20,000 bases of DNA from an uncultured virus (IMG/VR IMGVR_UViG_3300015608_000687) (IMGVR_UViG_3300015608_000687); one strand, 5' to 3'; shown: positions 1 to 19,365, counted from the stretch's first letter. Notes: a model not told the origin generated them from the letters alone. Made by a program: numbers and translations.

Positions 1-3000
1 AAAATTGATGATAAACCTGTTTTAGGTTATGTGCAAAAAGTACAACCAAACGGTTTACTTGAAAGCATTGAGGAATACCCTTTTGTTGCTAAGACTTTTA
101 ATCAAACTACCGGACGTAATGAATACGATATAGTATTACCTGATGGTTCAATTGAAAGAGTTGATAATCCAACATTTGTTGAAACAGATGGTTCTTCTGG
201 AACGCAAAGTTCTGGTAAAGTAGTATTGAATGGTGTTGACCATTTTTCTAATCCTTTGTTTTGGAATTATTACAGAGAGGTTGAAATGCTTAAAAACATT
301 TCTGCGGCAGAAGGTATTTCTGAAGCAGAATTGCTTGAAGCATATGGTCAGGAAGGATTTCCTGCACATTATCAAAGAGCTTTACTAGAGCATATATTAG
401 CTACAAGACCTAATTGGAGAGATTATATAAAGCTTGAAGCTGTTCAAAATAAACAATCTCCTGAATATCTTGCGAAACCTGTTGATTTAAAAAACAAAAG
501 AATAAGAGGTAAAAGATATTCCGGTGTAAATATTACCTTAAGTATAACTAATCCTGAGACTGGAGAAGTATACAGATTAGCACATACTTTAGATACTGAT
601 TTTTTTGAAGAAGTAAGTGATGAAGGAGTTGTTACCCCTATTGATTTTCTTAAGCTTGATTACAACGAGTTTAATAGTAAGTTTGCGTTCAGGTCTTTCG
701 GAGAGAAGAATGAAAGAAATGCAACGCCGGAAGAATATGAAAAATTCCTGTTAGTTTATGAGTCAGCAATGACTTTTAACAAGTGGGTTAATAAGTGGTA
801 TTCTGACAATAATTATAAAGATATTGTTCCAATACCGGAAGAAGCTTATAGTCTGGAGCCATATGGAATGTTGGATTTTAAACATAAGCTTGACCCAGAA
901 GTTGCAATAGCTGATATACCTGTACTTGAAAATGCACCAATTATAGCACCATTTCAAAGTACTTTAAAGACAATAAACGGCTTACCACTTCCATCTGGTT
1001 TAGATTTTAATCTTGAAATTACTTCAGGAGCATATTATGCATTAGCTCAATTTCCAAATGGTTATAACACTTGGGTAAGACTTAATGGTAAAACAATTGA
1101 GCAAGATAAAGAACTTGAAAAAGAACTTTCAGAACTAATTAAGAATGCAAATAATTTTGCATCTAATTTTGATTCTACAACAGCACTTAACACGTTAGTT
1201 GAATTTGAAGGTTCAGAAGTTGAGCTTAAACAGGCTTTTAAGACCTTATCAGACAGGCTTGGGTTTATACAGTCCAATGACCCAAGAATATCTGTAAATT
1301 GGTCTATTGACGTTCCTATGGCTTCTGAAGATGCTTTGCCTAACTATCAGGTAAAGCTGGAATTTAAATTTACAGAAGAAGGTAAGTCAATAAAAGGTTC
1401 TTCTTTGTATATCACTGATTTTGAATCAATTAGTGACTTATTGAGTCAAATAAAGGAACATGAGAAAAAGAACGCTTTTTTAATAAATAAAGCAAGAGTT
1501 CTTTATTCCGTTGATAAATCTTCTTTTAAGTCTTGGCCTGCTTATGGTGACTTGGGATTAAACTATAAGAAAAAGCTTTATCCGGTAACTAAACCGAATA
1601 TTGTTAAATCTTGGAATGTTAAAATAAGATTTAACGGAGAAGCTTTAATGAAAGAGGTTCCTTTAGCTGTTAGTAATTACACACCTTCGGATATTGATGA
1701 AAGTGTACCGTCTGAATTTTCTGGAACTGAAATAGAAGACTTTATAAAAGAACAAGAAACTGATATACAAACTAAAAAAGCTGAGACAGAAAGAAGAAGA
1801 CAAGAGGAATTAAATAAGGACAATGTATTATCAGAATTAAAAAAAATAGTATCGAAGGAAACCTTTGAAAATGCTAATACAGAAGGTCAAATAGAACAAA
1901 GGGTTATATTTGTTAAAGAGCATTCAAATAATGAAAAGGCTAAAGAATTAGCTAAACAATGGTTAAATATCAAAAATCATTCTGATAAAATCAATGCTAG
2001 ATACGATGCAAAAATAAAAGCATTAGAAGAGCAAACTGCTCAACCTGAAATAAAAGCTAAAAAAGCTTATATAGAAAAAAGAAGACAAGAAGAACTCAAA
2101 TCTTTACCTCTTGCTGAAAAAAGGGATGAGATAAATAACGCTAATGTTATGGAAGTTATCCCTGGGGATAAGTTTGGTAATGTAAGACCTAAGTATATTC
2201 CGTTTATTATAATTGAGGAAGCTAATAAAAATGATAAGTTAGGAGGTCAAACAGCCAGAGAAATTAATATTAGAGGAGGTTACTCTACTAAAGAGTTAGA
2301 TAGTAAACTTCCAAACTGGAGGAATTATTTAACAGGTGCTAAAGAAATCAATGCTAAATATGATGCAGAATATGTAGATGCTGTTAAAAAAGGGGAAATG
2401 ACTAAGGAGCAAGCTATGCAAGCTCTTGAACAAGCAGGTAGAAAAGGTAGTGATGCTTATACAGAATTAGCTGCTTTAGAAAATAAAAAGTCTGAACAAA
2501 ATAAATTATCTAAATTTAAAAAAGAAGATTTAGATAAATACGATAATATTGATTTTAAAATAGTTGATAGAGGTACTATAAACTATACTCTGACTTTAGA
2601 AGATGCAAGAGACTGGGTTGCTAAAAGATTTGGCAAATCAGCTTTTGTTCAAAATATTGATACACTTATTCATAACTCTGAAATAACAGGAATTCCTGTT
2701 GGTGCTGTTGTGAATAACATAATGTATTTAAGAAAGATAGGTGATAAAACAGATATGTATCACGAAGCTGGTCATATTGTGTTTAATAATTTCTTACCTT
2801 TTAAAAGACAAAACGCATATATAGAGAGAATAAAGAATGAATTAAAATGGTCTCCAAAACAACTTGAAGAAGCTAAACAAAAACTAAGAGCAAGAAGTTC
2901 CAGATATAGAAATATGTCTGACGCAGCTCTTGAAAGAAAAGTCTATGAAGAACAAATCATGGACAAATATGCTGATTGGCAAACTAAAAGAGAAGAAACT

Positions 3001-6000
3001 AGAACTTGGTTATCTGATTTTTTCAACAGTCTTAAATCTTTTATTGATTGGTTATTCAATAACAAGAGTCTTGTTGCTTTGTTTAATCAAATTGACAGAG
3101 GTGCTTTTAGAAATGCAAAAGCAAAGAACAAATATGGTGAAATAGATTTCAAGATTGTTCCCGGATTTAATCCTGTCACAAGTAATGTGTTTAAATCTCA
3201 GTTGGTGGGATTTATGATAAATGCTAAATTACCAGCTACTTTATCTGGTTTTGAAAAAGCATATGATATGTTATTATCTACATATGATGTAGATAATTCA
3301 GATGTTCAGAAATTTATTAAGAACAGCACCATTGAAGATTTAGAAACTAAAATGGCTGTAGTTTGGTCAAGACTTTCTAAAGCAGAAGCTAAGAATGTTC
3401 TTATGAATGAAGTTATAAAATTCTTTAAAAAGAATAAATATAATCCTGAAGTTGAGGTTTATGATGATTCTTCTTCTGAAGAAGGAGACAGAGTTTATGA
3501 TAAACCTGCTAATGAAATAGACCCTACAGATACTATAAATGAAGTTGTCAGAAACTTCTTGGCTACTACGTTAGCTATTGATAAAGATATATTTGGAAGA
3601 CCTGTTGAAACAGTTATCCCTTGGCAAACTGTTTATAACAGATTGTTACCTGTTTTATCTGTTACTCACACTAAATCTTCAGATATAATCAGAAGATTAT
3701 CTTACATGTCTAAGGACAGTAATGATACTTTTATACAAGCTGTTTACGAAAGATTAATAAAAGAAACTGGTTACAGCAAAGAAACTCCAGATGGTGTTGG
3801 TACAGAAGGTAAGAATCTTTTAATAGCTTTTAAAAATGCTTTTGCTTTAGAGCAGAATCTTTATTTACAAGCTGTGCTTGATAATGGTCAGGCTTCTATA
3901 CATATAGAAAATAAAAAAGATTTAGGTCAAAAGACTAAAGAAGAATGGGAAGACGACCACATTAAGAATTATCTTAATAAAGTAAATGCCGATAAGCAGA
4001 TTGCGTCAAAAGTCAATAAAGATTTTGAACACTTATTGTTAAGACTGAGTAGCAATCCTGCTGATGTCGAGCTTTCTAAATTCAAGAATTACAGACCTGA
4101 AAATGCTGTACTTGAGGTTTTAAATTCTGTTGGAATAAAACTTCAAAAGAAACATGCACAAGCTGCTTTTGGTGAAGAAACTGATGATGTTGAAGAAAGA
4201 AGAATTGTAAATGAAAATAAACAACCCATAATCACAATATCAGATATAAAGTTGATTTCTGAATATTTGAAAAAAGGTCAACCTTTATTTTCAGGAGAAG
4301 AAGGTGTTGATACGCTTGCTTCTCAAATAAAGCTGATAGCTACTGCTGATGCCAGATATAATCCTTTTATTGTAGCTAAGACTTATCAGGATGCTGCTGG
4401 AAAGAAAAGATATTCTTATTCAGAAGCTAATATGATGCATTCTGAAATACATAAGTTGAGAACTGATGTTTACAATGAGTCGAGATATAATGAGTTGTTA
4501 AACAGACAAAATGGTTATTTTAAATACAATAGTCTTGTAAACAAGAGTTATCAGGATGCTAAAAACATTCTTAATAACTTATGGCCCCACCTTATTTATG
4601 ATTTATCTGTCAGAGACGAGAATCAAACAGAAGGTATTACAAGCAAATCAGCTACAGACGGTGACTTTTTAGTTCTAATGCATATGTATTATCAGAGAAC
4701 TATAAAGAACTCTGAGACTGGTAATAAACCTTTTTCTATATTCAGTATGTCTCAAATTTCTGATAAGACATCTCAATATGGTTTCTTTTTACCTGTTGAC
4801 AGATATGTTACAAACGGTAAGTTGAATGAACTTGGTAAAAAGGATTTGTGGAATATGTTTAAAACAGACCTTTTCACTAAACAAGAAAAGTTTAATACTG
4901 GTTACATATTCAAAGGAGATTTGTTCTTTTTTGAGTATTTGAAATCTGATATTAATGTAGGAGATTATGTAAAAGCTCTTATAAGTAAAGAAACTTCAAT
5001 AGAGGATGTTACCCCGGAAGTTGAAAATATGATAGTTAAAGCTATCTATGATAAATTAATACAGCAAGCAAATGACCATATTAAGATTCTTCAAGATATG
5101 GGTCTTTATGATAATGTTGTTACTCCGGCTTTAAAGAAGGAATATCCCAATATTCTTGATTATTTTGTCAATCATCAGTTAAACACTTTTATCAAAGTAA
5201 ATGATGCTTACAAATTAATTGGGGGTAGTCCTAATTATACTAAAGGTTGGGATGACTTTATTAAGCGTATGGGTAGAATCATTGCTGCTGGTAGAGATTT
5301 TTCTGCTGGAAAATCAACTACTTATCACAGAGTTGCTTTTACAGATGACCAAGTTGTATTTGTAAATCCTGAAAATTTTGATGAAATAACAACTGATTCT
5401 AAAAAAGCTAAAGAGCTTGGTTGGGATGAAATAAATACAACAGATGCTCAGGTATGGTCTACAACTAATTCTAAACTTGAAGACATGCGTAAGCTGGGTC
5501 TTTTGACAGATGCTCTTGAAAGTGTTCTTTTAAGAATGTCTGTTGTAAAAGACAATGATGGAAATCTTGTGTTTCCTAATCCCGATGATGTTCCTACAAG
5601 AGATGAAATAGAGGCTGCCGGACTTGATTTAATTCCATCTAAACAAGTTACAGGTGGTAAAACAGATGATTTAAAAGAAGTCTATAACAAGATGGCTGTT
5701 CATTATCTGTCTTTTGTTGATTTGGCTTACCATGATGGTGAAAAATGGATTCCCAGACCAGACAGATTGTCTTTATATAACAAATACATGATGATGGTTA
5801 ACAATGATGTTACTCATCTTGTTCCAAAATCTGCAGCAAAGATGTTTTATGGTTCTCCTGTAAGCCATTCTTTTTTGAATGAATACACAGGACAAACTGT
5901 AAATACTTATATTGTACCAGACATATATAGAAGATTACAAGTTCAAAACAGCACTAAATCAAAGAAGAATATAGTTTTATCAAACCAGATTCTTAACATC

Positions 6001-9000
6001 ATTGGTTCTGAATTACCTGATACTGAAGAAAACAACAGATTGAAAACTAGAATGCAACAAAGCATTGCTAGGATGAAATCTCAGGATTTAAACTTCTTAG
6101 ATAGGATATTAGTTGGTTCTGATGGAAAAAGACCTGATTTAACAGTATTGTTGAATACCTTAATGAGTATTGCCGAAGATTCTTCTGGTGATAGCCAGAT
6201 GCTTGAGATGTTGAGTCATACTAATGGTAAACCAAATTATGATACTAACGTAGCACACATTTCCTCTAAGTTTACTGAAATGTTCTTTTCCAGATATAAA
6301 GATGTATTCAGACAGAAAGGATTTGGTAGAATATTGACAGCAGTTTCTTCTGACGGTTATAACGTAATTGAAGATAAGGATACTGGTGAAATCATTACAG
6401 ATTATACAGAGTATAATCCAGATAAGCATAAAATCAGACCTTTAAGAGGTATGAGAAACAGTGAATCTGGAATAACTCCTGCTGAAATATTTATACCCAG
6501 AAAGTATGCAGAATTATATAACTTACAAGTAGGTCAGGAACTCACATCAGATTTGTTCAAAACAATTCTCTACCGTGTACCTTCTCAGTCATATCACTCT
6601 GCTGCTATAGCTAAAGTAGTTGGATTCTTACCTGATTATTATGGTGATACAATAGTTGCTCCTAAAGAGTTTGTATTGCTTATGGGTATGGACTTTGACG
6701 TGGATAAGCTCTATATGTACAGTAAGGCTTTCTATCAGAATAAAAAAGGAGAAATCATAGTTTACGGCAAAGAAAAGACTCTAGAACAAAGATTTGAGTC
6801 TTATCTTAAAGACCTTACTGAAAACAATCCTTATATCAAAGCTGAATATAAAAGAAGACTTGAATCTGACAGTTCTTTTGCTGAAGTTAAGGAAGAACTT
6901 AAAAACGCAAGAAAAAAACTTAATTCAATATTTGAAGCAAAGAAAGAACTAAGAATACATAAAGGTGTTTTGCAAAGACTTAATCGTACAATGCAAGACA
7001 TACTTGGTGATGACAATAGTGAATTAGACCAAGAAAGTTTAAGCGAGAATATCTTGTTTATAAAGCAGGATATAGCTGAACTTCGTAATATTGTTTCTAA
7101 TATTCCTAATGTAAAAGAAGAGATATTCGATTTAATGGACAGCATAGTTCAAAGACAAGAGTTTGAATTAGTTCAAACTTTAAAGTATTTCAACATGCCT
7201 GTTAATATGGAAGAGTTTTCTAAATCTTCTTATATTCCTAAATATCAACTTTGGAACGATGTTGTTGATTCCATGTATGAGATATTCAGTAAATCTGATT
7301 TGTGGGATGCTTTTCGTATGAAACTCTCTACAGATAGAACTGACAGTTTCATTGAAACAAATAAAAACAAATTATCAACTGCAGATATTGTTCCGGGTAC
7401 TCCTAATGCTGTTTATAGTTCATTTAAAAACGCAAGACAAGGTAAAGTACAAACAGGTATTGCAGTAACAAATAACACAGGTATTCAGTTCTTACTTGAA
7501 AATAACATTGTAATTGACCCTGAAATAATTCAAGAAACGCCTATAATCTTTAACAATGAAATAATCAGGCAGTTTAACATAGATGATTTAAACAGAGAAT
7601 CTATGGACGCAGGTTCTGAAATATTAGGTCGTATTGTAGATAATCAGAAAAACCCTGTTGCTGATAAGCTTAATCTTACTCCTGAAACTATGGGTATAGC
7701 TTATATTATAACTAAAGCTACAGGTGATTTGGATTTAGCTTTATTGTTTTTACAGTCACCTACGTTAAAAGCCATTTCAGAAGCTAAAAAGAACTCTGAA
7801 AGAGTAGTTAATCCTGTTGATTATTTTGGTGAAACTACTAAGATATTGAAGAACTTAGATAACAAAGAAGTAGAATTAAAGAAAAAATCACCATCTCTTG
7901 TTGTAAATTATATTCCTGTTACTAAACAAAATCTGGAATGGTTGATAAACAACCTTAATTATGAAACTTTATCAGATGATGATAAAGCTAAATATATAGG
8001 TTTAGAAAAAGAAATATACAGAAATTATAGTATTTTAAAAGATATTGCTGGTACTACACAAGCAATAACTACAACATTGTCTTTAAATAGGTCAATTGAC
8101 TCTGATATAGCTTCTGCATATAGAGTTTTAAATGCTTTTGATACTGTTGAAAAAAACAAGGTTCTACCTAATGCTTATGGTGCATTAATGAGTAATCCTG
8201 TAAATCAAGTCAATTATGATATTTTAAAACACGCATTAAGAACACTTTCTTTATATCAAATTACTGAAACATATTATGCAAATAATGTAATTGACACTGT
8301 TCTTGGTATGTTAAGCAGTTCTGGAAGAAAGAAATATCATCAGGATATTATCAATTCTTTTATGAGTTCCTTGCAGATGGCTGTTATTGAAAAGAACGAA
8401 GGTTCTTTATTAAAACATGCTGAGTTGCTCATGAAAAATCCAAAATCTTTAGCTAACATTGTATCTGAATTTAAAAGCAGAAAAGAATATGAAAACAATG
8501 TGTTTCTTAAGCTTTTAAGTACTAAGATGAATTTGAAAGAAGAGGCTTATGATTTAGTTACAGCAGATAGTCGCAGTAAGCTTTCTCCAGAGGCTCAGGC
8601 TGCTATATTAGACGCTTCTACTTATATAATGCATAAGGAACCAGAGTTATTCAGAAAGCTTGAAAAGTATCTGCAATTGATGGATGGTATGATGTTTAGA
8701 AACGGTTCGTTTGTAAAAATGATGCCTGCTGAGACATTTAAATCCGTAGCTAAAGCTTTAGAAGACATTAATGAAGTATTAACGGGTAACTACAATAATG
8801 AACAAAGAATAGCTAAATTCAAAGAGTTGACAGGCTATGATTTCAATGAATTTAAAAACAGGTTCATTGATCAATTCTTTATGCATATTGTAAATAAAAG
8901 ATTACCAAGAACAGATTATAAGGGTTATAATAAAGAAGGTAAAACAATATTTAATAAGACTTTTATAAATGGAATACTTAAAATAAATCTGGTAGATAAA

Positions 9001-10074
9001 ACTAATCCTGAAACAGATATTCAGGTATTTCAACCTGTTTATAATGAAGACGAAACTCTTTTAAGAATAGAGTTTCCAAGATATTTAAGAATTAAACTTG
9101 AAACAGGTGGATACAAAGGATTTAGATTAAAGAAAAAAACTGATTTTTCTGCTGAATATGAACCAATAATTTACATAGGAGATAAAAGAAGAAAGCCTTA
9201 TTCATTATCTATTGCTGACAATATTAAGTTGCAGCAGATGCTAAAACAGGATATTAAACAGAATACTCCAGATACTGTAGAAGAATCAACTAATCTGATT
9301 TCTGATGATAATAGTGTATTCTTTGAACAAGAAAGTGTTGGAGATATAGCTTCACAAATACCTATTGATGAATCTACTTATATTCCTGCGTTTGGAAAAG
9401 CTGTTGCTAAACCTGAAGAAAAATTAAAAATAAACATTTATAGTGGTACTGGAGAAAATCCTGAATTAAGTAACTTTGCTAATAGACCTTTTACTGATGA
9501 TGGTATTGGAGATTTGGGAATGAATTATAAAGAAGCGACAGGAAAGTCTATAGTATTCAATACTGTAGAAGGTTTCTTCCAAGCTTCAAAAATACAATAC
9601 TCAAACTCTTCTGAGTACTGGGATAAGTCTAAAGATGGTTGGACTTTAACAAAAAGAGGAATTGAACTAATAGAAAAATTTGCCAAAGCAACTGGTTCAG
9701 AAGCTAAGTCTTTAGGTAGAACTATAAAAGAATTAGATACAAAAGAATGGGATAAGTATTCTTCACAGGAAATGAAAGGAGGTTTACTAGCATCTTTTGA
9801 ACAAAATCCAGATGCTTTAGTTAAACTTCTTTCTACAGGAAATGCTACTCTCACTCATACACAAGATAAAGGTAAATGGGGAGTTGAATTTCCAAAATTA
9901 TTAATGGAAGTAAGAACAGAACTTGCAAAACAACAAACTCAAAATCTTTGGTCTCAGTATCAACAAGCTTCAATAGAAAATAATAAAACTGTAGATTTAA
10001 CACAAGCTGAATTTGAAGCGTTATCTACTGAAGAACAAGAAACTATAATTTATCAAATCAAAAACTGTAAATAA
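1..10074 (+). CDS. Giant virion-type DNA-dependent RNA polymerase polyprotein (crAss-like / phi14:2 gp66-like two-barrel RNAP) with zincin and NADAR-like accessory domains; probably 5'-truncated
   Basis: Frame is open from base 1 (KIDDKPVLGY precedes the GTG at 31), so the true start probably lies upstream; ends TAA 10072-10074. Contains MGMDFDVDKL (6682-6711), YRVPSQSYHS (6571-6600), TTDAQ (5437-5451), PKSAAK (5824-5841) and VDNQKNP (7636-7656), in the order expected for crAss-like RNAPs. Confidence 0.9.
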   Translation, partial: KIDDKPVLGYVQKVQPNGLLESIEEYPFVAKTFNQTTGRNEYDIVLPDGSIERVDNPTFVETDGSSGTQSSGKVVLNGVDHFSNPLFWNYYREVEMLKNISAAEGISEAELLEAYGQEGFPAHYQRALLEHILATRPNWRDYIKLEAVQNKQSPEYLAKPVDLKNKRIRGKRYSGVNITLSITNPETGEVYRLAHTLDTDFFEEVSDEGVVTPIDFLKLDYNEFNSKFAFRSFGEKNERNATPEEYEKFLLVYESAMTFNKWVNKWYSDNNYKDIVPIPEEAYSLEPYGMLDFKHKLDPEVAIADIPVLENAPIIAPFQSTLKTINGLPLPSGLDFNLEITSGAYYALAQFPNGYNTWVRLNGKTIEQDKELEKELSELIKNANNFASNFDSTTALNTLVEFEGSEVELKQAFKTLSDRLGFIQSNDPRISVNWSIDVPMASEDALPNYQVKLEFKFTEEGKSIKGSSLYITDFESISDLLSQIKEHEKKNAFLINKARVLYSVDKSSFKSWPAYGDLGLNYKKKLYPVTKPNIVKSWNVKIRFNGEALMKEVPLAVSNYTPSDIDESVPSEFSGTEIEDFIKEQETDIQTKKAETERRRQEELNKDNVLSELKKIVSKETFENANTEGQIEQRVIFVKEHSNNEKAKELAKQWLNIKNHSDKINARYDAKIKALEEQTAQPEIKAKKAYIEKRRQEELKSLPLAEKRDEINNANVMEVIPGDKFGNVRPKYIPFIIIEEANKNDKLGGQTAREINIRGGYSTKELDSKLPNWRNYLTGAKEINAKYDAEYVDAVKKGEMTKEQAMQALEQAGRKGSDAYTELAALENKKSEQNKLSKFKKEDLDKYDNIDFKIVDRGTINYTLTLEDARDWVAKRFGKSAFVQNIDTLIHNSEITGIPVGAVVNNIMYLRKIGDKTDMYHEAGHIVFNNFLPFKRQNAYIERIKNELKWSPKQLEEAKQKLRARSSRYRNMSDAALERKVYEEQIMDKYADWQTKREETRTWLSDFFNSLKSFIDWLFNNKSLVALFNQIDRGAFRNAKAKNKYGEIDFKIVPGFNPVTSNVFKSQLVGFMINAKLPATLSGFEKAYDMLLSTYDVDNSDVQKFIKNSTIEDLETKMAVVWSRLSKAEAKNVLMNEVIKFFKKNKYNPEVEVYDDSSSEEGDRVYDKPANEIDPTDTINEVVRNFLATTLAIDKDIFGRPVETVIPWQTVYNRLLPVLSVTHTKSSDIIRRLSYMSKDSNDTFIQAVYERLIKETGYSKETPDGVGTEGKNLLIAFKNAFALEQNLYLQAVLDNGQASIHIENKKDLGQKTKEEWEDDHIKNYLNKVNADKQIASKVNKDFEHLLLRLSSNPADVELSKFKNYRPENAVLEVLNSVGIKLQKKHAQAAFGEETDDVEERRIVNENKQPIITISDIKLISEYLKKGQPLFSGEEGVDTLASQIKLIATADARYNPFIVAKTYQDAAGKKRYSYSEANMMHSEIHKLRTDVYNESRYNELLNRQNGYFKYNSLVNKSYQDAKNILNNLWPHLIYDLSVRDENQTEGITSKSATDGDFLVLMHMYYQRTIKNSETGNKPFSIFSMSQISDKTSQYGFFLPVDRYVTNGKLNELGKKDLWNMFKTDLFTKQEKFNTGYIFKGDLFFFEYLKSDINVGDYVKALISKETSIEDVTPEVENMIVKAIYDKLIQQANDHIKILQDMGLYDNVVTPALKKEYPNILDYFVNHQLNTFIKVNDAYKLIGGSPNYTKGWDDFIKRMGRIIAAGRDFSAGKSTTYHRVAFTDDQVVFVNPENFDEITTDSKKAKELGWDEINTTDAQVWSTTNSKLEDMRKLGLLTDALESVLLRMSVVKDNDGNLVFPNPDDVPTRDEIEAAGLDLIPSKQVTGGKTDDLKEVYNKMAVHYLSFVDLAYHDGEKWIPRPDRLSLYNKYMMMVNNDVTHLVPKSAAKMFYGSPVSHSFLNEYTGQTVNTYIVPDIYRRLQVQNSTKSKKNIVLSNQILNIIGSELPDTEENNRLKTRMQQSIARMKSQDLNFLDRILVGSDGKRPDLTVLLNTLMSIAEDSSGDSQMLEMLSHTNGKPNYDTNVAHISSKFTEMFFSRYKDVFRQKGFGRILTAVSSDGYNVIEDKDTGEIITDYTEYNPDKHKIRPLRGMRNSESGITPAEIFIPRKYAELYNLQVGQELTSDLFKTILYRVPSQSYHSAAIAKVVGFLPDYYGDTIVAPKEFVLLMGMDFDVDKLYMYSKAFYQNKKGEIIVYGKEKTLEQRFESYLKDLTENNPYIKAEYKRRLESDSSFAEVKEELKNARKKLNSIFEAKKELRIHKGVLQRLNRTMQDILGDDNSELDQESLSENILFIKQDIAELRNIVSNIPNVKEEIFDLMDSIVQRQEFELVQTLKYFNMPVNMEEFSKSSYIPKYQLWNDVVDSMYEIFSKSDLWDAFRMKLSTDRTDSFIETNKNKLSTADIVPGTPNAVYSSFKNARQGKVQTGIAVTNNTGIQFLLENNIVIDPEIIQETPIIFNNEIIRQFNIDDLNRESMDAGSEILGRIVDNQKNPVADKLNLTPETMGIAYIITKATGDLDLALLFLQSPTLKAISEAKKNSERVVNPVDYFGETTKILKNLDNKEVELKKKSPSLVVNYIPVTKQNLEWLINNLNYETLSDDDKAKYIGLEKEIYRNYSILKDIAGTTQAITTTLSLNRSIDSDIASAYRVLNAFDTVEKNKVLPNAYGALMSNPVNQVNYDILKHALRTLSLYQITETYYANNVIDTVLGMLSSSGRKKYHQDIINSFMSSLQMAVIEKNEGSLLKHAELLMKNPKSLANIVSEFKSRKEYENNVFLKLLSTKMNLKEEAYDLVTADSRSKLSPEAQAAILDASTYIMHKEPELFRKLEKYLQLMDGMMFRNGSFVKMMPAETFKSVAKALEDINEVLTGNYNNEQRIAKFKELTGYDFNEFKNRFIDQFFMHIVNKRLPRTDYKGYNKEGKTIFNKTFINGILKINLVDKTNPETDIQVFQPVYNEDETLLRIEFPRYLRIKLETGGYKGFRLKKKTDFSAEYEPIIYIGDKRRKPYSLSIADNIKLQQMLKQDIKQNTPDTVEESTNLISDDNSVFFEQESVGDIASQIPIDESTYIPAFGKAVAKPEEKLKINIYSGTGENPELSNFANRPFTDDGIGDLGMNYKEATGKSIVFNTVEGFFQASKIQYSNSSEYWDKSKDGWTLTKRGIELIEKFAKATGSEAKSLGRTIKELDTKEWDKYSSQEMKGGLLASFEQNPDALVKLLSTGNATLTHTQDKGKWGVEFPKLLMEVRTELAKQQTQNLWSQYQQASIENNKTVDLTQAEFEALSTEEQETIIYQIKNCK
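1762..2481 (+). repeat. Two tandem bracket repeats: I-x-x-KKA-x-x-E-x-RRQEEL ... insert ... IN-A-(R/K)-YDA ... (L/I)-x-ALE
   Basis: Left arms 1762-1812 (DIQTKKAETERRRQEEL) and 2047-2097 (EIKAKKAYIEKRRQEEL); right arms 1984-2028 (DKINARYDAKIKALE) and 2344-2370 + 2464-2481 (EINAKYDAE...ELAALE); the enclosed inserts are unrelated. Confidence 0.85.
2566..3129 (+). other. Zincin-like metallopeptidase domain within the RNAP polyprotein
   Basis: YHEAGH (HExxH at 2761-2775), downstream EEQIMDKY (candidate third-ligand helix) and WLSDFFNSLKSFIDWLF amphipathic helix; zincin-RNAP fusions are known in crAss-like phages. Confidence 0.75.
5251..7656 (+). other. RNA polymerase catalytic core (two double-psi beta-barrels, DxDxD metal site, putative bridge-helix/trigger-loop region)
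   Basis: DDFIKR (5251), TDAQ, SAAK, RxP motif (RVP 6574) and DFDVD (6691-6705); DFDxD resembles the DFDID catalytic motif of the phi14:2-type RNAP. Boundaries approximate. Confidence 0.85.
9430..9924 (+). other. NADAR (YbiA-like) domain near the C-terminus of the RNAP polyprotein
   Basis: LSNF...F, TVEGFFQASK, EAKSLGR, EWD, FEQNPD...LLSTG, WG, LLMEVRTEL match the NADAR motif series (SNF, EhyfQAxK, AKxlGR, KFxQN, LlsTG, WG, LMxvR). Confidence 0.8.
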
Positions 10075-13000
10075 TGCCTCATTGCATAGTAACATCACAC
10101 CCTGATTATTTAAAATTGCTTAAAGAATCTGGTTTAAAAGAACCAATTCTCAAAGCAAAAATATCCGTATGGCAAGAAAAAACAGGAAACTTAGATAGAT
10201 TTCCAACTGTTGCTGAACTAAATAATTTAGTAAGTAGTCCTAATATTTCTATTAAACCAGGAGTATCAGAATTATTTGAGAATAATCCTGAATTAGTTAA
10301 TGCTGTATATGAAGCTTTAGGGTTTGAAACAAATAAAATAAAAGGAATTTGGGGACTACCAGAAGGAGTCAGTTCTTTAGAAAAAATATTTGAAAAAAAA
10401 GTAAAAGAAAAAGGAATAGCTTTTTCTACCGCTAAAGAATTATTAGAAATTATAAGTCAGACAAAAGATACTTTAGCACCAATAGCTAAAAGTTTAATTA
10501 AATATACAGATAAGATATTAAACGCTAATGTAGAAATTTCTAAAAAATACCGTGATGGTAGATATATACCGCAAAGTTCTTCTTATGAAGAAGAAGATAA
10601 AGGTAAAATACTTTTACAAGCAAGTGGTACGTTTGCATTAAATAGTAAAATAATTATACATGAGATAGTACATAGTTTTACTTCTGATTTTGTTAGAAAT
10701 AACCCTAATGATGAATCTGTATTACAATTAAAAAATATTATACAAGAACTTAAAAAAAGAGGTTATAAAACAGTAAATTATATCAATGATAATAATGCTT
10801 CTAATAATGAGTTTTATTATTTTAAAAATGAACGTGAATTTATTGTAGGATTGTTTTCTGATACTGAATTTATAAAAACTTTACAAAAAGAATCTGGATT
10901 GAATAATAAAAAATCTTCTTTATTAGAAGAATTGTACAATACGATTCTAAAAATGTTAAATATAAGTCCTAAAGAATATAATCTTTATGAAGAAAGCCTT
11001 TATTATGTAGAATCTATATTAAACAATCCTGCTAACAAAGTACAAACTACCTATGATAAAATAACCCCACAACAAAAACAACAAGCTCAACAACTGTATT
11101 CTCAATATTTAGAACAAAATCCTAATGGTGATGTAGAACAGTTTAAGAGTTGGGTGAATGAGTTTAATAGAAAAACAAATTTAGAGAAAACTTCTGAAAA
11201 CAAAACAATAGAAGAATTATATAAAGAAAATCCAAAGCTTAAAGAGTTCATTAATTCAGTAACAGATGAAGATAATACTACATTGTCTTTATATAAAGTT
11301 AAAAATTTATTAAACCAAAAAGGTGAAGGTAGAATTGTAAAACTTAATAATATTCTCTATAATGCAATAAGTAGACTTTGGGATAATAGAATATTTTCTA
11401 ATAATAATATAAAGATATATTTTGTAGATTCTTTATCTGATAATGCAGTTGGTAATTTTAATCGAGATGATAATGAAATAACTATAGATAAAACAAAGTT
11501 TTTAAACATAGTTAATAATTCATATCAACAAGATGAAATATTTTATTTAGGATATATTTTAAATCATGAAATAATACATTACTTAACACCCAATGATTTA
11601 AGTCTTAAAATAGAATATATAGATAGAGCGTTGGAGGGAAGATTTGGTAAAACTTTTGAATTACCATCAGAAAAAGAATTTGGAAAGAATATAAAAGAAC
11701 TTTATGATATTGCTAAATCTCAAATAGAAGATGTATCAGACTATGGATTTACTAATTTAGCGGAATTTGTAGCAGAAGCTATGAGTAATCCTAATTTTCA
11801 AGAAAAACTTGCTTCTGTACCATATAAGTCTACTAAGAAATCTCTGTGGAAAAGATTTATTGAAATTGTATCAGCTTATTTAACTAAATATACTGGTAAA
11901 CCAATCAATGATACTTTATTAGAAGCAGTATTAGCTGAAGTTACAAATTATATAACAGAAAATTCCAATATTCAAAAAACTTATAAAATAAGAAATAAAG
12001 AAAATGATGTATTTTTTGATTTTGTATTTAATACAGAAAAAAATGTAAAATCTCTATCAGACTTCATATCTAAAAAATCTCAAGAAAGATTAAAGGCTAT
12101 TCAAGAAGTTTTTAATAGTAATCCAGAACTTAGTAAAATAGGAGATGTTTTTTCCTATGCAATCTATCTTGATTCTATCTTTCCTGATAGTAAAGTAAAG
12201 GATATTGTTTATCATGGAAGCCCCCAGTTTGGGTTTGATAAGTTTTCTAAAGAAAAATTAGGCGAATTTACTGGAGCAGGTTCTGCTAGATTAGGGTTCT
12301 TTTTCTCCAATAATTTAGAAAATTCTTTTGCCGCATATACAAGAAATGTAGGTAAAGATATCTCGTTTGGTGATGATGGAAATGCAGAAGGGATTGAAGG
12401 AACTTTTGGTCTTTCACAAATAGATTCTCTAATAGAAGATTTAAATGAAGGTAGAAATTTTACAGATAACGAGATAAGAAGTAAAGAGTATTTTATAAAA
12501 AGCACGTCTAAATCTGGTGGAGTATCTTATGGCAGTCCTTTTAAAACAAAAGAAGAAGCTTTAGAAGGTTATAAAAATGATGATTGGAATTATGACCCAG
12601 AAGCTAAAGTAGAAGTAATTGAAAATATAAATTATGGTAAATATAGGTATAGTAAAATAGATTGGTTAAAAGATAAACCAACAGTTTATTATAGAGAAGA
12701 ATTAGGGAAAAAAGATAGTAAAATTACTACTTCAGAAAAAGAATATACTAATGCTTTAAATAAAAGAAAAGATTTTTTATTAAATGAAAGAACTAAATAC
12801 ATTAAAGAGCAATCTAAAAATAGAGTATATAGTATTTTATTAAACTCTAAAGATTTAAAAGAATTTGATGATAAAGGTAATGAGTGGAGGGAACAAGCTT
12901 ATGTTGATAGAATTAAACAAACTTTATCTGAAAATAAAGATGGTTTAGTTATTAGAAATACATATGACCCTTTATTAAGTGACGTATATGTAGTATTTGA

Positions 13001-14580
13001 ACCAGAACAAATCCACATATTAGGTTCTCAATCAGATATTCAAGGATTTAAAGAGTTTGTTAAGGGTAAACCTAATAGTGTTAAACCTGGAGTTGAGGAA
13101 TTATTTAGTGAAAATCCTGAGTTAGCTAATGAAGTATATGAAGCTTTAGGGTTTAATTTTAGATACACATCTGAAAAATGGAAAGATGACCCAACATTAG
13201 AAAATAAAGCAACGTATATTAATATAAAAGGAACTCCTTCTAATCAAGAGTTTCAAGTAAAAAAAGATATTGAAGAAGGATTTTATTCTGTACATTTTAA
13301 AACTGAACAAGGGAAACTAACTAAAGAGCAAATACAAACATTGGTAGATGCTGTAGCTTCTCAAATTCCAATTGGAGGTAAATTATCAACATGGGGAAAA
13401 ATTAGTAAAGGCGGTATTTCAGGATTAAACAGATTCTTAAATAATGGATTTAAGAAAGTTGGAGAGCGTGAAATTAAAGATAGAGAAGGACGTCCTATTG
13501 TTGTACCTATATTAGAAAAAGTAGAAAAATCTAATTTAGAGCAACAAGCTCAACAGCTTTATTCTCAATATCTCGATACTATATTTCCTGATAGTAAAGT
13601 GAAGGATATTGTTTATCATGGTACGGTAGAAAAATTTGATAAGTTTGACTTAGAAAAGGTTAATAAAAATAGAAAAGCTTTTTGGTTTGGAGTTAAACCT
13701 GAAGAAACAGCTTTTGGTATTAAAATTCCAGTTTTACTAAATATACCAAAATGGACAGATTTTAGAGGTAAAGGTGCAATTGATGTTTTAAATAATGAAA
13801 CAATTGATAAAATTAAAGAAAAAGGAGGTAAAGGTTTTATTGGAGAAGGATTTTACGGAGAAACTCAAATAGGAGTATTTGAACCAGAACAAATTCATAT
13901 ATTAGGCTCTAAACAAGATATAGAAGGATTTAAAAAGTTTGTTAGTAACCAGTCTTTACCTGCTGCATCTATTCCTACTATTGGTAATTTAGATAATTTA
14001 CAATATGAATTTCATATAGTAACTAAACTATTTTCTGATAAAGGTCAGCAATTAATAAAGTCTTTGACTAAAAATAAAGTTAGTCAAGATGAATTCTACA
14101 ATCAGCTACAGACTAAATTACAGATTCCTAGAGACCAAATGAATCTCTTAAAAGAATCTGAGGGTAATACTATTGAAGAAAAGTTAGCTTCATTTGCTGC
14201 TAATTATAGTTATACTGTTGAGATTAATACTGCTAAAGATTTTAATAAAGATGGAGCTAAAAATTATAATTCTTTTGATTTAAATAATAGAAGATACTCT
14301 AGGGGAATAGATGATGAAGTAGGTCAATTCTATCAATATTTTGATTTAGAGAAAAAACAATTTGTAAATATTTCTCAACAAGAATATGAAAAAGCTGTTA
14401 ATGAAGCTAAAATAAAAGATGAAAAATTTAACACTCAATACTATTCTAATCTAACAGTACCAGGTGGTACTAACTATACAGAAAATGAAATATCCACTCC
14501 ATTAATTACTCCTAGTATTAAAGGTCATGCTCAATTTAGTACTGATAATGGTATTGGGTGGTTTAGAAGTGATGATAAAG
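10074..14580 (+). CDS. Giant polyvalent virion/ejection protein, 5' part (two zincin domains, two ADP-ribosyltransferase-like domains, possible GNAT-like domain); probably continues across the N gap to 19365
   Basis: ATG overlaps the upstream stop (TAATG 10072-10076); frame open until the N run at 14581; HEIVH 10659-10673, HEIIH 11565-11579, two IVYHG...VFEPEQIHIL units. Confidence 0.85.
10252..10325 (+). repeat. Box A copy 1 (KPGVSELFENNPELVNAVYEALGF)
   Basis: Direct repeat with 13081-13154; 60/74 nt identical by manual alignment, last 21 nt identical (gtatatgaagctttagggttt). Confidence 0.9.
10326..11060 (+). other. Zincin-like (MPTase-PolyVal-like) metallopeptidase domain 1 of gene 2
   Basis: GRY...KILL...IIIHEIVHSFT, then NEREFIVGLFSDTEFIKTL and SLLEELYNTILKML. 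Confidence 0.75.
11241..11960 (+). other. Zincin-like metallopeptidase domain 2 of gene 2
   Basis: VGNF...ITI...LNHEIIHYLT, then YGFTNLAEFVAEAMSNPNFQEKL and SLWKRFIEIV. Confidence 0.8.
12165..13061 (+). other. ADP-ribosyltransferase-like domain 1 (ART-PolyVal-like) with a large internal insertion
   Basis: IVYHGS...FDKF...GFFFS...AAY...RVYSILLN...DGLVIRN...YVVFEPEQIHIL motif series typical of ART domains of polyvalent proteins. Confidence 0.7.
12993..13061 (+). repeat. Box C copy 1 (VFEPEQIHILGSQSDIQGFKEFV); copy 2 at 13875-13943
   Basis: 60/69 nt identical by manual count to 13875-13943 (VFEPEQIHILGSKQDIEGFKKFV). Confidence 0.9.
13081..13154 (+). repeat. Box A copy 2 (KPGVEELFSENPELANEVYEALGF)
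   Basis: Direct repeat with 10252-10325. Confidence 0.9.
13542..13622 (+). repeat. Box B (QQAQQLYSQYL-DTIFPDSKVKDIVYHG); 5' half repeated at 11079-11111, 3' half at 12165-12218
   Basis: 12165-12218 vs 13569-13622: 49/54 nt identical by manual count; QQAQQLYSQYL is identical at protein level at 11079 and 13542. Confidence 0.9.
13569..13943 (+). other. ADP-ribosyltransferase-like domain 2 (compact)
   Basis: IVYHGT...FDKF...AFWFG...IPVLLN...KGFI...IGVFEPEQIHIL; termini nearly identical to domain 1. Confidence 0.65.
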
Positions 14581-14695
14581 NNNNNNNNNNNNNNNNNNNN
14601 NNNNNNNNNNNNNNNNNNNNNNNNNNNNNNNNNNNNNNNNNNNNNNNNNNNNNNNNNNNNNNNNNNNNNNNNNNNNNNNNNNNNNNNNNNNNNNN
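14581..14695. other. Assembly/scaffold gap (115 N)
   Basis: Run of n characters. Confidence 0.99.
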
Positions 14696-17600
14696 ATTTA
14701 TTTCAGAAAGGTAGAGACAATAAAGACTTAATTACTAAATTTCCAGATAAACATCTGCTATCATTAGAAGAATATTCTAAACAATACAATAAAATTGGAG
14801 AAAAAATAGGAAGTAAGGAAAATAATTTTTTACAACTTCTGAACAAAGACAATAATTGGGTAACCTTTTTTGTTAAATCTATCATACAAGATAGTGCTAA
14901 AAAAGGGTATGAGAAAGTATTATTTCCTACTGGTAACACTATTGTTAAAATAGAACAATTTGACAGAATTAAAGAACAATTAAATACACTAAATAATAAA
15001 TTAAAAACTTTAATTGAAACTAAAGTTGAGGATAATGGTTATGGTGTTTGGTTTTATGAAGCAGGTGTAGATGAAGAATCAGGAGGCCCTTTTAATTCAA
15101 AACAAGAAGCTGAAAAATCATTAACCAGTAGTATAGAAAAAACTAAAAGAGATTTACAACATTTTGAATCTGCTAATAAAACTGTAATAGGAACTATTAA
15201 CTTCTATGAGAATACTGTAACTAATATTCTTAAAAAACAAGGATACAATCCTGTATTAATTACAGATGAATACGGTAATACTTGGAATGAGGTTACTATT
15301 AAAAAAGAATACTTATCTCCTGTTGTTTTAAGTTATAATCCTCAAGATTTATTTCTCAATAACCTAAAAAAGCAACTTAGAATATCTGGAACTAAAAGTA
15401 GAATTCAAATAGCTAATATAAATGAAAAAATTGCTGAAATCAATAAATCATATAATATTGTTGTAAAATTAGATGTTTCTAAAATAGGACAATCTGATTC
15501 TTTTAAACTTGATTTAAAACTATTAAAGAATTCTTATCACAAATATCTTTCTGAAAAGACTTTAAAAGATGTTTTAGAAAAAGTATCTCAGAGTAATAAA
15601 ACCATGAGTACTTTAGCTAAAAAACTTCTAAATAAAATAGATGGTGTTGAAAATGTTCCTATTGAATATATTTCTGATGAAGAATTTCGTAAGATAAAAG
15701 GTTCTGTAGTTTATGGCAAAAGTGCTGCAGCTTTATATATTCCGAATGAAAAAAAGATTGTAATCAATATTGACTATATCAATAAACATCCAGAATCAAT
15801 AATTATCCATGAAATATTACACGCAATAACTTATCACTATATCCGTACTAATGATACTATAGCAAGAGAATGGCAAGAGCTTTATAATAAAGTAAAAAAA
15901 CAATTTGAAGGAGATTCTTTATATGAATCTCACGCATTAAGAGATGCAGATGAATTATTAACTGCTGTGTTTACTAATGCTAATTTTATAAAAGCATTAG
16001 CTACTAAACCATCATTACTTGCACAAAGAGCTACTTTATGGGATGACATTAAGAATTTCTTTAAAAACACACTTGGTTTAAATAATATTGAAAGAACCTT
16101 GTATGACGACGTGTTTGAAAAAGCATCTGAAGTAGTTGACGTAGCTGCTCAATTCAATAAAAATGGTTCAGATTGGAGTCTTTTCGATGATATGCCTTTA
16201 GCGGAAATTCAAGAAGATGAACTTGAATCTTATATAGACCCAAGAATAAACAGGGCCATTGACAAAATGGTAAACACTCTTAGTTCTAAAAAGAAAGAAC
16301 TTAATGAGCAATATATCAAAGGACAACATGCTGATATTTCTCGTAGAAAAAATCTTATTGAAAATAGTATAGTGAGATTAATTTCAAAAGAAAGTCCTAT
16401 AGATGATTTAATAACAGTAGGTTATAGAGACTTGTCTCTTGCACAAAAGTATTTCAATAAAGTAGATATAAGTAATTGGGAAGCTGCTCAATTGATGTAC
16501 ACAATTGAAGCTATAAAAGTATTAGACGAAGATTTAAAAGGCGTTGAAATGACTGATGAGCAGTCTGCAAAACTTTCTAAACTAAGGCAAAAGGCTCTTG
16601 AGTTTAGCTCAAAATTCGATGCTTTCTTAAAAACAAGACTTGAAGTTTTATCAAGAGCAAAAGGTCTTGAAATAAGTAATATTGATTTTGCTTCACCGTA
16701 TACCGATAGAAACATTGTTTCTGCAGCAACTTATAACATGGGTATATCTGAAATACCTCATTTAAGAGTTGGTGAAGCTATTATACAGAATCTGATGCGT
16801 TCTGCACAAGAACAAATAGATTCTTTCAGAAAAGAAAGAGAATTATTAATAAAAGAAGTTGGAAGAGAAGCTTTTGCAAAAATATTTGATTCTTCTGGTT
16901 ATCTCATAACTGAATACAAAAGGGAGTTTTTCGATGAAGAAAAACAACAAATACAAGAAGCTAATGACATAATTTATAGTGAAACCGCAAGTCCTGAAGA
17001 AAAAAGAAGAGCTGAATCTAAGTTGTTGAAATGGTTTTTAGATAATTATGACTATTATCTTACTGAAGAAGGTAAGGCTGATTATGAAACAGAACTCAAT
17101 AACGTAACTGAAGATAGTGAAAATGATGCTGCAGCAATAAAAGAATTTGAACTTAGATATTCTTGGTTGAATCAAGGGAATATAGATGCCAATGGTAAAT
17201 TCACTCCTAATAAACTATTCATTCAATATAAAGACGGAGTAAAGGCTTCTGGTTGGTATAAATATCTAAAAGCTGTTCCCAAGAGTATCCACAGAGATTC
17301 TCGCTACGATTCTATAAAAGATACGCCTGCTTATGACTTCTATGTTAAAAAAATGATTGAGGCCAGTCTTAAAATACCACACGAACTTGCAGTTGAACGT
17401 GGTTCTTTTTATAAATTCCTCAAACATGTTAAATTAGATGCTGCTGAATCTGTTGGTGGATTATCCGTATTTGCCAAAACTCTTTGGAAAGAAATGAAGA
17501 ATTGGACAAATGTTGATATTAGTATTGCACAGGCAGAAGGTAGAGACATCAGATTAGTTGACGAAAAAGGCAGACCTAAAGGAAAAATACCTTATAAAGC

Positions 17601-19365
17601 AGTAGATGAAATAAAAGTAAAAGACCCGTTAAAACTTTTAGAGGACTTTTATAAAACTGCTGTAATGTATGAAGCCAGATTAGATGCTCAATCTCAATTG
17701 GATTTGGTTGGTTATGATTTAGAAAAATTACCGGGATATTCAAGAAACAAAATAGGTGCTATACGCAAAGATATGGCTGGTAATCAAGTATTAATCGAAG
17801 GTGGTTTGACTAATGCTATAAACCAATTCAGATACCGTAAGGAAGCTGCTTTAACAGGTAAAACAAGAACTGATGAAAACATAGGAGTTGTAAAACCTAC
17901 TCCAGAAGAAATAGAAGCTAAAAAAGCTGCTATAAAAGCCAAAAGAGAAGCTGGAATAGAAATTACACCAGAAGACTATATGTTCAACAGATTTAGTGTT
18001 GTAAAGTCTTTAGATAGTGCTATAGACTATACAAGGCTTTTACTTATTGGTTTAAAACCATTTACAGCAACTGCAAACTTATTAATTGGTTTAGCAAACA
18101 ACTATATATACGGAGCTAGAAATACTGATTTCTCAGAAAGTAATCTTAATTGGGGATTAAAGAAGATATTTAAAGCTTATACAACAGGTCTTGTTACAAA
18201 GGATAAAGAAGCTTTTAAACTTGCTAACTTAGCTGAGAAATTTGGATTAACTGAAACTCTATTTGAAGACCAAGGTGAATATCAAAGTAAATTCTTTTCT
18301 AAAGTCACCAAGTTTATGATGTCTTTACAAGCTGGTGGTGAATTTGTAATTAGTGTTCAAAACATGCTTGCTTTTATGGATAAAATTAAGATAAAAGATA
18401 AGTCTGGAAAAGAACGCAGATTATATGATGCTTACGATGAATTTGGACATTGGCGTAAAGATGTATTTGGAGACATGCCTGAATGGGAAAACATGACTGT
18501 TCTTGATGGTGCTGGAACTAACATATCTAAAATAAATCAATTACGCAACAGAATTGATGAAATAAGAGATAGAACTCAGGGTGATTATAGAAACCCAATG
18601 CCTGCAAAAGGCAAAGTCTGGGGTAGAATTTTAGCTATGTTTAGAACTTGGTTGCCAAGAGCTGTACATGAAAGATTTGGTAGTCATAATCCTGCAATAG
18701 GCTTCAAAGGACGCTATAGAAGTTATGGAACAGCATTTGCCCAGTCTTGGAACAAAGGTGGCTTAAAAGAAGCTTTAAAGCTTTTAGGGGCAACTTCTCT
18801 TACAACCTTTGTTAAAACCATGAATTTGCCTGTAATCAACACAATGTCTGCAAACGTATTAAGTAAATTAGCAGATACTACACAAAGGTCTTATGATAAT
18901 TATCTTGAAAAGCTTGATATAACTGAATTAGATGTTCAAAATATGAGGTCAAATATTAAAGAGTTGCAATTCATTTTATTTACTTTGATGTTAATAGCCG
19001 CTTTAAAAGGACTTGACGATGATGATGAACAAAATCCAATGTTGAATTTTACTTTGAATTTATCTAATAGATTATATCAAGATTTAACTTTCTTTACAAT
19101 TCCGACATCTTTTATGAGTATTGTAAAAGACCCTATTCCTTTATATGCTTCTGTAAAAGGTACTGTAGATGTAATTAATGCTTTAACTAATTACATAGAA
19201 GACCCTTCAAAAGATGAATATAAAACAGGTTATAGGAAAGGTGATAGCAAAACATGGAAAGAAATCACAGATATGTTACCAATATGGTCATCTTGGAACT
19301 CTACACAAAGCGTTATGAGTCAGGTATCTAGTCAAGATGCATACAGATACACAGATAAAAAATAA
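14696..19365 (+). CDS. Giant polyvalent virion/ejection protein, 3' part (zincin domain and long helical C-terminal region with hydrophobic segments)
   Basis: Open frame resumes right after the gap (LFQKGRD at 14698) and runs to TAA 19363-19365; HEILH 15808-15822 followed by DELLTAVFTNANF; C-terminal QGDY...GRILAMFRTWLP...RF motif and hydrophobic ELQFILFTLMLIAALKGL (18961-19014). Confidence 0.85.
15550..16150 (+). other. Zincin-like metallopeptidase domain 3 of gene 2
   Basis: AAALY...KKIVIN...IIIHEILHAIT (15808-15822), HALRDADELLTAVFTNANFIKAL, TLWDDIKNFFKNTLG. Confidence 0.8.

Follow-up and report, generated by a model that had tools for sequence, protein, structure and literature searches.

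Giant cargo proteins of a crAss-like phage with paired terminal cysteines, and a possible tail-to-head disulfide between them

The window analysed here, a 20,000-nucleotide (nt) stretch of DNA from an uncultured virus (IMG/VR IMGVR_UViG_3300015608_000687), is largely occupied by two very long genes on one strand, called P1 and P2 (Table 1). On comparison with cultured relatives, P1 is the particle-borne RNA polymerase (RNAP) and P2 the RNAP-associated partner of a crAss-like phage, and each visible product has a single cysteine (Cys), the penultimate residue of P1 and the fourth of P2, facing each other across the gene junction. The pairing of a terminal Cys with one at the start of the next protein is a strongly conserved rule in this group of phages, and we consider here whether the two form a disulfide in the virion.

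The RNA polymerase junction and its two cysteines

The frame of P1 is open at its 5' end, being truncated by the edge of the window, with 3357 amino acids (aa) visible; it ends in IKNCK, the Cys codon being followed by AAA and the stop TAA (10072-10074), and P2 starts at the ATG of 10074-10076 with the residues MPHC. Among the 6414 codons of the two genes there are just two in-frame TGY (TGT or TGC) codons, as against 92 and 340 in the other two frames of the same DNA and expected numbers of 81 from codon-position composition and 149 from plain base composition. A first-pass annotation of this DNA, made from the sequence alone, had claimed as much, and our count bears it out; its remark that the neighbouring MazG and ThyX pieces each contain two Cys per about 100 aa also agrees with the count. 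Chance as the origin of the terminal cysteines is ruled out by these TGY expectations taken together with the junction statistics and fusion data given below.

In phmmer, P1 is similar over residues 2166-2245 to the catalytic part of the RNA polymerases g066 of phage phi14:2 and gp50 of phage crAss001, and jackhmmer connects residues 2101-2700 to the same two proteins. The P1 segment DFDVDKLY at residue 2231 aligns with DFDIDKMY of g066 (1361) and DFDVDKLY of gp50 (1483), the DFDxD motif, which belongs to the two-barrel RNAP core of the crass cargo module, being named as the hallmark in the abstract of 10.1101/2020.03.07.982082. The C-terminal domain of P2 matches residues 1058-1407 of phi14:2 g065 and 990-1343 of crAss001 gp49. 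Since the P1 core matches g066 and gp50 and the P2 end matches g065 and gp49, the junction in the window is the boundary between the RNAP and the RNAP-associated protein, and corresponds by these alignments to g066/g065 of phi14:2 and gp50/gp49 of crAss001. Because 2100 residues precede the P1 core, the upstream g067-like block is probably fused to its front; at the other side, the C-terminal end of P2 has no Cys, and therefore the chain ends there, the window apparently holding the end of the cargo block. Both proteins are most likely injected into the host.

P2 contains a run of Ns. Judged by its relatives it is a single gene of about 3097 codons across this gap, because the close relatives are continuous and residues 1045-1084 of one of them, P0004, span it, with about 40 residues and no Cys there. 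These relatives (P0001-P0005) are uninterrupted proteins of 2351-2628 aa with one Cys each, at position 4, and share both the P2 start (MPHCIVTSHP...) and its end (...AYRYTDKK/N). The real length of the hidden stretch at 14581-14695 is probably not 115 nt, as the frame shifts across the gap and the relatives show about 40 residues.

Table 1. Features of the window, in order of position from its first nucleotide (ORF, open reading frame)
Feature	Position	Strand	Basis
P1, giant virion RNA polymerase protein, one Cys	1..10074	+	ORF and Cys count; phmmer/jackhmmer match to phi14:2 g066 and crAss001 gp50
DFDVD catalytic-type motif, P1 aa 2231-2235	6691..6705	+	aligned with DFDID of g066 (1361) and DFDVD of gp50 (1483)
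NADAR domain, P1 aa 3153-3298	9457..9894	+	Pfam PF08719, E 3.5e-12, 47.3 bits vs cut-off 35.1
P1 C-terminal tail, aa 3299-3357, ending ...LSTEEQETIIYQIKNCK; candidate docking helix, carries the Cys	9895..10071	+	alignment A1
TGT, Cys3356 of P1 (3357 aa), penultimate, sole Cys in P1	10066..10068	+	translation
TAATG overlap of P1 stop and P2 start	10072..10076	+	sequence
P2, giant cargo protein associated with the RNAP, homologous to g065/gp49 but with added cassettes; one Cys	10074..19365	+	ORF, jackhmmer, relatives
P2 N-terminal domain, about 50 aa, MPHCIVTSHPDYL...W..DRFP	10074..10223	+	alignment A2
TGC, Cys4 of P2 (MPHC), sole Cys in P2	10083..10085	+	translation
ART-PolyVal match, P2 aa 1179-1208, effector-type cassette	13608..13697	+	Pfam PF18760, E 4.2e-8, 34.5 bits vs cut-off 31.2
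115-N run inside P2; frame 0 before, frame 1 after	14581..14695	.	sequence
g065/gp49-family conserved C-terminal domain of P2, no Cys at this end	18148..19362	+	jackhmmer
MazG-like pyrophosphatase, 2 Cys in 105 aa, neighbour of ordinary composition	19391..19708	-	Pfam, Cys count
ThyX-like thymidylate synthase, C-terminal part, 2 Cys in 100 aa	19698..20000	-	Pfam, Cys count

Terminal cysteines in relatives, fusions and splits

The cultured crassviruses resemble the window in having an RNAP core with DFDxD, the partner's C-terminal domain and the cysteines at the same junction. In phi14:2, g067 (1797 aa) has its single Cys as the last residue, 1797, the only cysteines of g066 (2180 aa) are residues 3 and 2179, and g065 (1421 aa) has Cys 3 only; in crAss001, the single Cys of gp47 (2341 aa) is residue 2339, gp50 (2412 aa) has Cys 5, 1334 and 2404, and gp49 (1349 aa) has Cys 5 only. 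The window proteins are much larger, P1 with 3357+ aa where g066 of phi14:2 has 2180 and P2 with about 3097 where g065 has 1421, and they differ also in their extra NADAR and ART-PolyVal cassettes. The notes of the phi14:2 sequence record mark g065-g067 as found by virion proteomics. Mass spectrometry detected gp47, gp49 and gp50 among the crAss001 cargo, according to the text available to us of the structural atlas of that phage (PMC10172136), where it is also argued that the cargo must partly unfold for tail passage and where inter-subunit disulfides are reported in the virion, in the tail and in gp57. Since gp47 of crAss001 lies on the strand opposite to gp50 and gp49, the terminal-Cys rule is a property of the proteins rather than of junction DNA or translational coupling.

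Two scans of IMG/VR gave 62 loci, to which the window was added; nearly all 62 encode the RNAP core in one giant protein and the g065-type domain in its downstream neighbour. Junctions were taken between consecutive proteins on the plus strand of at least 400 aa and less than 0.5% Cys, at most 3000 nt apart, ORFs of less than 400 aa or with at least 0.5% Cys (such as a 1513-aa, 29-Cys protein of locus L026) being left out. The resulting 84 junctions fell into 57 clusters at less than 50% ungapped identity over 50+50 residues, and a terminal Cys was scored in the last 12 or first 12 residues. In 39 of the clusters a C-terminal Cys is followed by an N-terminal one in the next protein, and in 0 is it followed by a protein without; three have the N-terminal Cys alone and 15 have neither (Fisher's exact p = 3.7e-11). 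Conservation and co-conservation of the two cysteines, which the first-pass annotation had named beforehand as the test of its proposed link, were therefore both found. The 3000-nt rule dropped a junction of L056 in which the first protein does have a Cys at its C-terminus and the second has one at position 8.

The positions are narrowly set: in 37 of the 39 paired clusters the C-terminal Cys is 1-4 residues away from the end, in 40 of 42 the N-terminal one is at position 3-5, and the summed overhang of both has a median of 4 residues. Across 91 related Cys-poor proteins, Cys makes up 102 of 172,104 internal residues (0.059%) and 85 of 2,184 residues (3.9%) in the terminal 12-residue windows, and all eight database relatives of the P2 N-terminus (8/8) have exactly one Cys, at position 3-6. 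Small links with a Cys at both ends occur as well, of 424 (L009), 599 (L020), 655 (L032), 665 (L019) and 691 aa (L022), and a 199-aa protein in L033 is likewise built; first members of chains without an N-terminal Cys and last members without a C-terminal one are seen, for example, in L060 and L051. At the head of the gene block of L022 (3-662) stands a lytic transglycosylase or internal-virion-protein-type domain, as expected for an ejection module.

In some lineages these proteins are fused. The contigs of L021 and L049 encode one complete giant protein each, of 7103 and 6492 aa and with zero Cys, holding g067-like, RNAP and g065-like segments in that order; in the 6492-aa protein (L049), NADAR is followed directly by P2-like sequence. 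An exhaustive, profile-free search with the P1 core against 1.84 billion representatives gave 982 hits, and from the best 150 of these the 116 of at least 1800 aa were analysed, the 34 shorter ones, likely fragments, being left out; the virion RNA polymerase (vRNAP) counts given here and below refer to this set. Cys accounts for 198 of its 436,936 residues (0.045%), and the last 12 residues of 92 of the 116 include a Cys. This C-terminal Cys is missing from all 15 representatives in which the g065-type partner is fused and present in 92 of the 101 unfused. Likewise, the 57 in which a g067-like block is detectably fused are all without an N-terminal Cys; the 13 representatives that do have one belong to the other 59, and the median number of residues before the core is 1446 with an N-terminal Cys and 2675 without. 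One RNAP and partner fusion, P0139, starts MGC and has no further Cys. Terminal cysteines are thus lost where the modules are fused.

Splits of another kind serve as a control. In L029, L030, L038, L040 and L041 the RNAP core is divided by about 1 kb with a LAGLIDADG endonuclease gene, and a similar gap is present in the core of L061; the ends at these six splits carry no Cys. In all six the interruption adjoins the catalytic region (at 6027-7108 in L029), and in the first five the endonuclease gene is free-standing; the vRNAP gene thus seems to contain a group I intron. Homing-endonuclease genes of the GIY-YIG type (phrog_314/7168) also lie between members of the chain, in L009 (11032-11637), L022 (10180-10791 and 12848-13630) and L056 (12662-13654), and cysteine-pair junctions may be preferred sites of endonuclease insertion.

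The terminal segments and their likeness to known systems

In alignment A1, of P1-type tails, the Cys is invariant (6/6) and an LSxEEK-type motif is common to the members, and in alignment A2, of P2-type N-terminal domains, Cys4 and Pro44 are invariant (7/7). The Cys precedes several unrelated N-terminal sequence families and follows several tail types, and, judged by eye, tail and N-domain types travel together: the window, L025, L054 and L039 have tails of the form E-F/W-x-x-L-S/P-x-E/Q-E-K/Q...C and N-domains of the form MxHC-I/V...W...D-R/K-F-P. When the last 80 aa of P1 were co-folded with the first 130 aa of P2 the score was 0.53 (runs 0.56, 0.52 and 0.53), the best of three controls reaching 0.00; at least 56% of the contacts are common to the runs, the partner has a predicted local distance difference test score of at least 60, and no interface was reported. 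The co-fold mark is reached by 116 of 157 solved complexes and by 2 of 215 mismatched pairs, and because scores of 0.60 or less came from only 18 of the 157 and from both mismatches, this prediction adds little; it lends weak support to docking of the P1 tail on the P2 N-terminus.

The first 52-76 residues of P2 are 82-92% identical in the close relatives, while the cassettes that follow are swapped. P0001-P0005 keep in addition the last 1350 or so aa (92-97% identity), and their middle cassettes and lengths differ from those of P2 (2351-2628 against about 3097 aa), a pattern that points to recent in-frame exchange of cassettes in the middle of the gene.

A structural precedent for such a link comes from cyanopodophage A4, for which the available text of PMC12002296 (PNAS 2025) describes, by cryo-electron microscopy, how gp27 sends its C-terminal helix into gp26 and is disulfide-bonded to it, Cys1715 of gp27 to Cys5 of gp26; its authors read the bond as stabilising, and that text states no general rule or relation to fission and fusion. 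In the sequences of this phage (Anabaena phage A-4L), gp27 (1717 aa) and gp26 (1114 aa, starting MSKHC) have one Cys each, Cys1715 and Cys5. A4 is like the window in that consecutive ejection-protein genes have their sole Cys near the upstream end and near the downstream start, respectively, three residues from the end of gp27 (NPCQF) where that of P1 is penultimate, and at position 5 of gp26 where that of P2 is at position 4 (MPHC). It is unlike the window in having a pentameric pre-ejectosome ring and no RNA polymerase, and in being a single link where the crass phages have chains of two to four. A jackhmmer search with A4 gp26, gp27 and gp28 against all crass ORFs and the representatives found only the queries themselves.

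Two further ejection-type proteins keep a pair of cysteines within one chain: a 646-aa protein of the cargo block of L001 (13954-15894), whose only two cysteines form a CxxC at 46 and 49, and A-4L gp28, which likewise has only Cys1036 and Cys1039. These may be small metal or redox sites in otherwise Cys-free ejection proteins.

Polyvalent proteins of phages and conjugative elements, reportedly the subject of a 2017 study by Iyer, Burroughs, Anand, de Souza and Aravind, are said to be giant, multi-cassette proteins with ART-PolyVal and NADAR-type domains that are thought to enter the host with the DNA. P1 and P2 resemble them in their NADAR and ART-PolyVal cassettes (Pfam names), swapped in relatives; these are unrelated effector-type domains within the giant proteins, both above the Pfam cut-offs. 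The polyvalent-protein concept concerns domain content; to our knowledge it includes no terminal-cysteine rule, and none was found in the titles and abstracts of the papers on bacteriophage polyvalent proteins in which cysteine is mentioned.

The Schitoviridae (N4 gp50, DEV gp71-73) also carry a giant particle-borne RNA polymerase with co-ejected proteins, from which Cys is almost eliminated; their virion polymerase we take to be of another type than the crass one. In the portion of PMC11445570 at hand, Cys suppression in the ejection operon of N4-like phages is described and explained by the disulfide-forming periplasm, the suppression being total (0.00075% in gp71 homologues) and without terminal pairs, unlike that in the window, where P1 and P2 keep one terminal Cys each and such complete absence is not seen. 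The first-pass annotation had proposed that Cys is purged from proteins that pass unfolded through an oxidising periplasm; the purge in P1 and P2 holds, and the rationale is not new, because it is in print for those phages.

Other matches in the window are more marginal. A SprT-like match in the second half of P2 is below threshold (E 0.0042, 17.4 bits against a Pfam cut-off of 25.6); a zincin-like protease domain is stated for the g065-type protein in the accessible text of 10.1101/2020.03.07.982082. Directly 5' of the ART-PolyVal match, at 13395-13610 (P2 aa 1108-1179), lies a sub-threshold match to a CdiA C-terminal tRNase domain (E 0.00081, 20.1 bits against 26.5), which may be a further effector cassette. 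Neither blastn with the junction region nor tblastn with P2 residues 1-1000 matched anything in 50,697 phage records, and tblastn of the last 1000 aa of P1 matched the NADAR domain only, in 6 records; phmmer of P1 and of both P2 parts (P2a and P2b) against PDB sequences gave 0 matches each, and when the final 68 aa of P1 were used in a word-index search, the sole hit was the protein of the window itself.

A putative disulfide tether and its alternatives

The co-conserved cysteines, their loss on fusion and the A4 bond make a tail-to-head disulfide the best reading of the pattern, and we put the probability of a virion disulfide between P1 Cys3356 and P2 Cys4, as suggested by sequence comparison and by analogy with A4, at roughly 0.65. 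The corresponding proposal of the first-pass annotation, a disulfide or metal bridge chaining the ejected proteins, is to that extent partly supported, having passed the comparative tests and found a structural precedent in A4. The modules exist in related phages either as one Cys-free polyprotein of 6,500-7,100 aa or as separate proteins; in the latter, the P1 C-terminal tail would dock on the small P2 N-terminal domain in the assembled virion, and the docked thiols would form an intermolecular disulfide, re-creating a covalent thread that is almost linear, the median overhang being 4 residues. Purging of all other cysteines would leave no wrong bond to be made in the crowded capsid or the periplasm, and after tail passage the reducing cytoplasm would cut the P1-P2 link. 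That the bond forms in this phage, when it forms, and that it has a role in ordered ejection and stoichiometric co-delivery, we infer from these comparisons.

Several points weigh against a disulfide. Many hosts are anaerobes and the phages assemble in a reducing cytoplasm, which makes the timing of the bond a difficulty, and single cysteines do not specify which C-end meets which N-end, given two or three junctions per chain. Three of the 42 N-terminal cysteines (L001 MGKC, L017 MQHC and L020 MTC) are orphans with no adjacent upstream partner. The lineage of L057 (1-20475) has consecutive cargo-type proteins of 815, 521, 4367 and 1103+ aa with zero Cys and no terminal pairs, so the pair is not indispensable; the tether there would be dispensable or replaceable. 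Among the 101 unfused vRNAP representatives, nine have no Cys among their 12 final residues; in three of these one occurs 14-39 residues before the end, and truncated gene calls may account for some. The A4 precedent is an analogy, because its gp26, gp27 and gp28 have no sequence similarity to the crass proteins. In the crassvirus literature we found no description of terminal cysteines in the cargo: the words Cys, cysteine and disulfide are absent from 10.1101/2020.03.07.982082, and the word cysteine is absent from the crAss001 atlas (PMC10172136), which reports disulfides for the tail and for gp57.

One alternative is that the termini do dock but that the link between the cysteines is a bound metal ion or other non-disulfide chemistry, for example as a thiol redox sensor. 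The reducing conditions of assembly just mentioned and the many anaerobic hosts would suit it, as would the His directly before the N-terminal Cys in 5 of the 42 clusters, among them the MPHC of the window; the co-fold, at 0.53 against 0.00 for the best control, weakly supports docking as such, whatever the chemistry. Each end, however, offers one Cys, with no second conserved ligand in A1 or A2, and a zinc site usually has more than two ligands; in addition, the sole solved case of the pattern, that of A4, is a disulfide, as far as the text of PMC12002296 available to us goes, and crAss001 virions do carry disulfides, as reported in the accessible part of PMC10172136. We consider this explanation unlikely.

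Alternatively, each terminal Cys could act alone, as a tether to a third virion component (the portal, the capsid interior or the cargo zone of the tail) or as a packaging mark. The three orphans would then need no partner, and in some loci, such as L053, the first giant has an N-terminal Cys beside ordinary Cys-rich genes. Such independence is hard to square with 39 of 39 C-terminal cysteines being followed by an N-terminal one, with both cysteines vanishing together on fusion, and with phi14:2, crAss001 and L060, in which the first member has no N-terminal and the last no C-terminal Cys. A further N-terminal Cys, in L055, seems an orphan, but its partner is probably a protein of 1614+ aa that ends HCL and is encoded on the opposite strand, as in crAss001. 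Cysteines acting singly are in our estimation quite unlikely.

Strongly disfavoured, and very improbable, is the idea that the cysteines are a neutral by-product of gene splitting or of junction DNA signals (coupling, endonuclease targets) with no function in the protein: the TAATG overlap in the window and the homing-endonuclease genes between chain members in L009, L022 (twice) and L056 could be cited for it, but the pair is kept in junctions less than 50% identical and in several unrelated tail and N-domain families, persists when the partner genes are on opposite strands, uses both TGT and TGC in the window with flanking codons that differ among loci, and stands in proteins otherwise purged of Cys to 0.02-0.06%. 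A junction DNA or translational-coupling signal in particular is ruled out because the pair survives both strand inversion (crAss001) and inserted genes. The coupling that the first-pass annotation had read from the TAATG overlap did not hold up as a conserved feature, with crAss001 gp47 and gp50 on opposite strands, the genes more than 200 nt apart in 9 of the 39 paired clusters, and homing-endonuclease genes in the intervening ORFs of five loci.

Two other candidates were rejected. A lipoprotein-type N-terminal Cys would appear to have no room for a signal peptide, the Cys being 3-5 residues after the start Met, and a split intein is not indicated, Pfam detecting neither an intein nor a HINT domain in P1 or P2 and the cysteines lying at the very ends without intein flanking domains.

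The disulfide reading can be extended to a wider one, in which terminal Cys pairs are a general, convergent device of short-tailed phages that makes a redox-cleavable pseudo-polyprotein; this broader version, including thread, release switch and address code, we regard as possible, at somewhat less than even odds. Gene fission would then be tolerated, since a disulfide at the ends would restore one continuous thread, which would be pulled through the tail in fixed order and at 1:1 stoichiometry. The reducing cytoplasm of the host would act as the release switch freeing the RNA polymerase and its partners, and matching types of C-tail and N-domain would be the address code by which ends pair.

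Crassviruses are among the most abundant viruses of the gut, and the question at stake is how their megadalton cargo, which includes the RNA polymerase that starts the infection, is arranged and moved through the tail. According to the part of the crAss001 atlas available to us (PMC10172136), its authors consider that the order of extrusion is probably set by packing and mutual interactions. The A4 bond and the N4-type Cys purge were known already, and the crass terminal pairs add to these. For annotation, a lone terminal Cys in an otherwise Cys-free giant phage protein predicts a partner protein, and also marks true protein ends as against breaks of the intron or sequencing type. If the disulfide reading is true, a conserved covalent tether of a single residue per protein boundary would provide a concrete handle on the ordering of the cargo, and would explain how freely these gene blocks flip between one giant gene and several genes.

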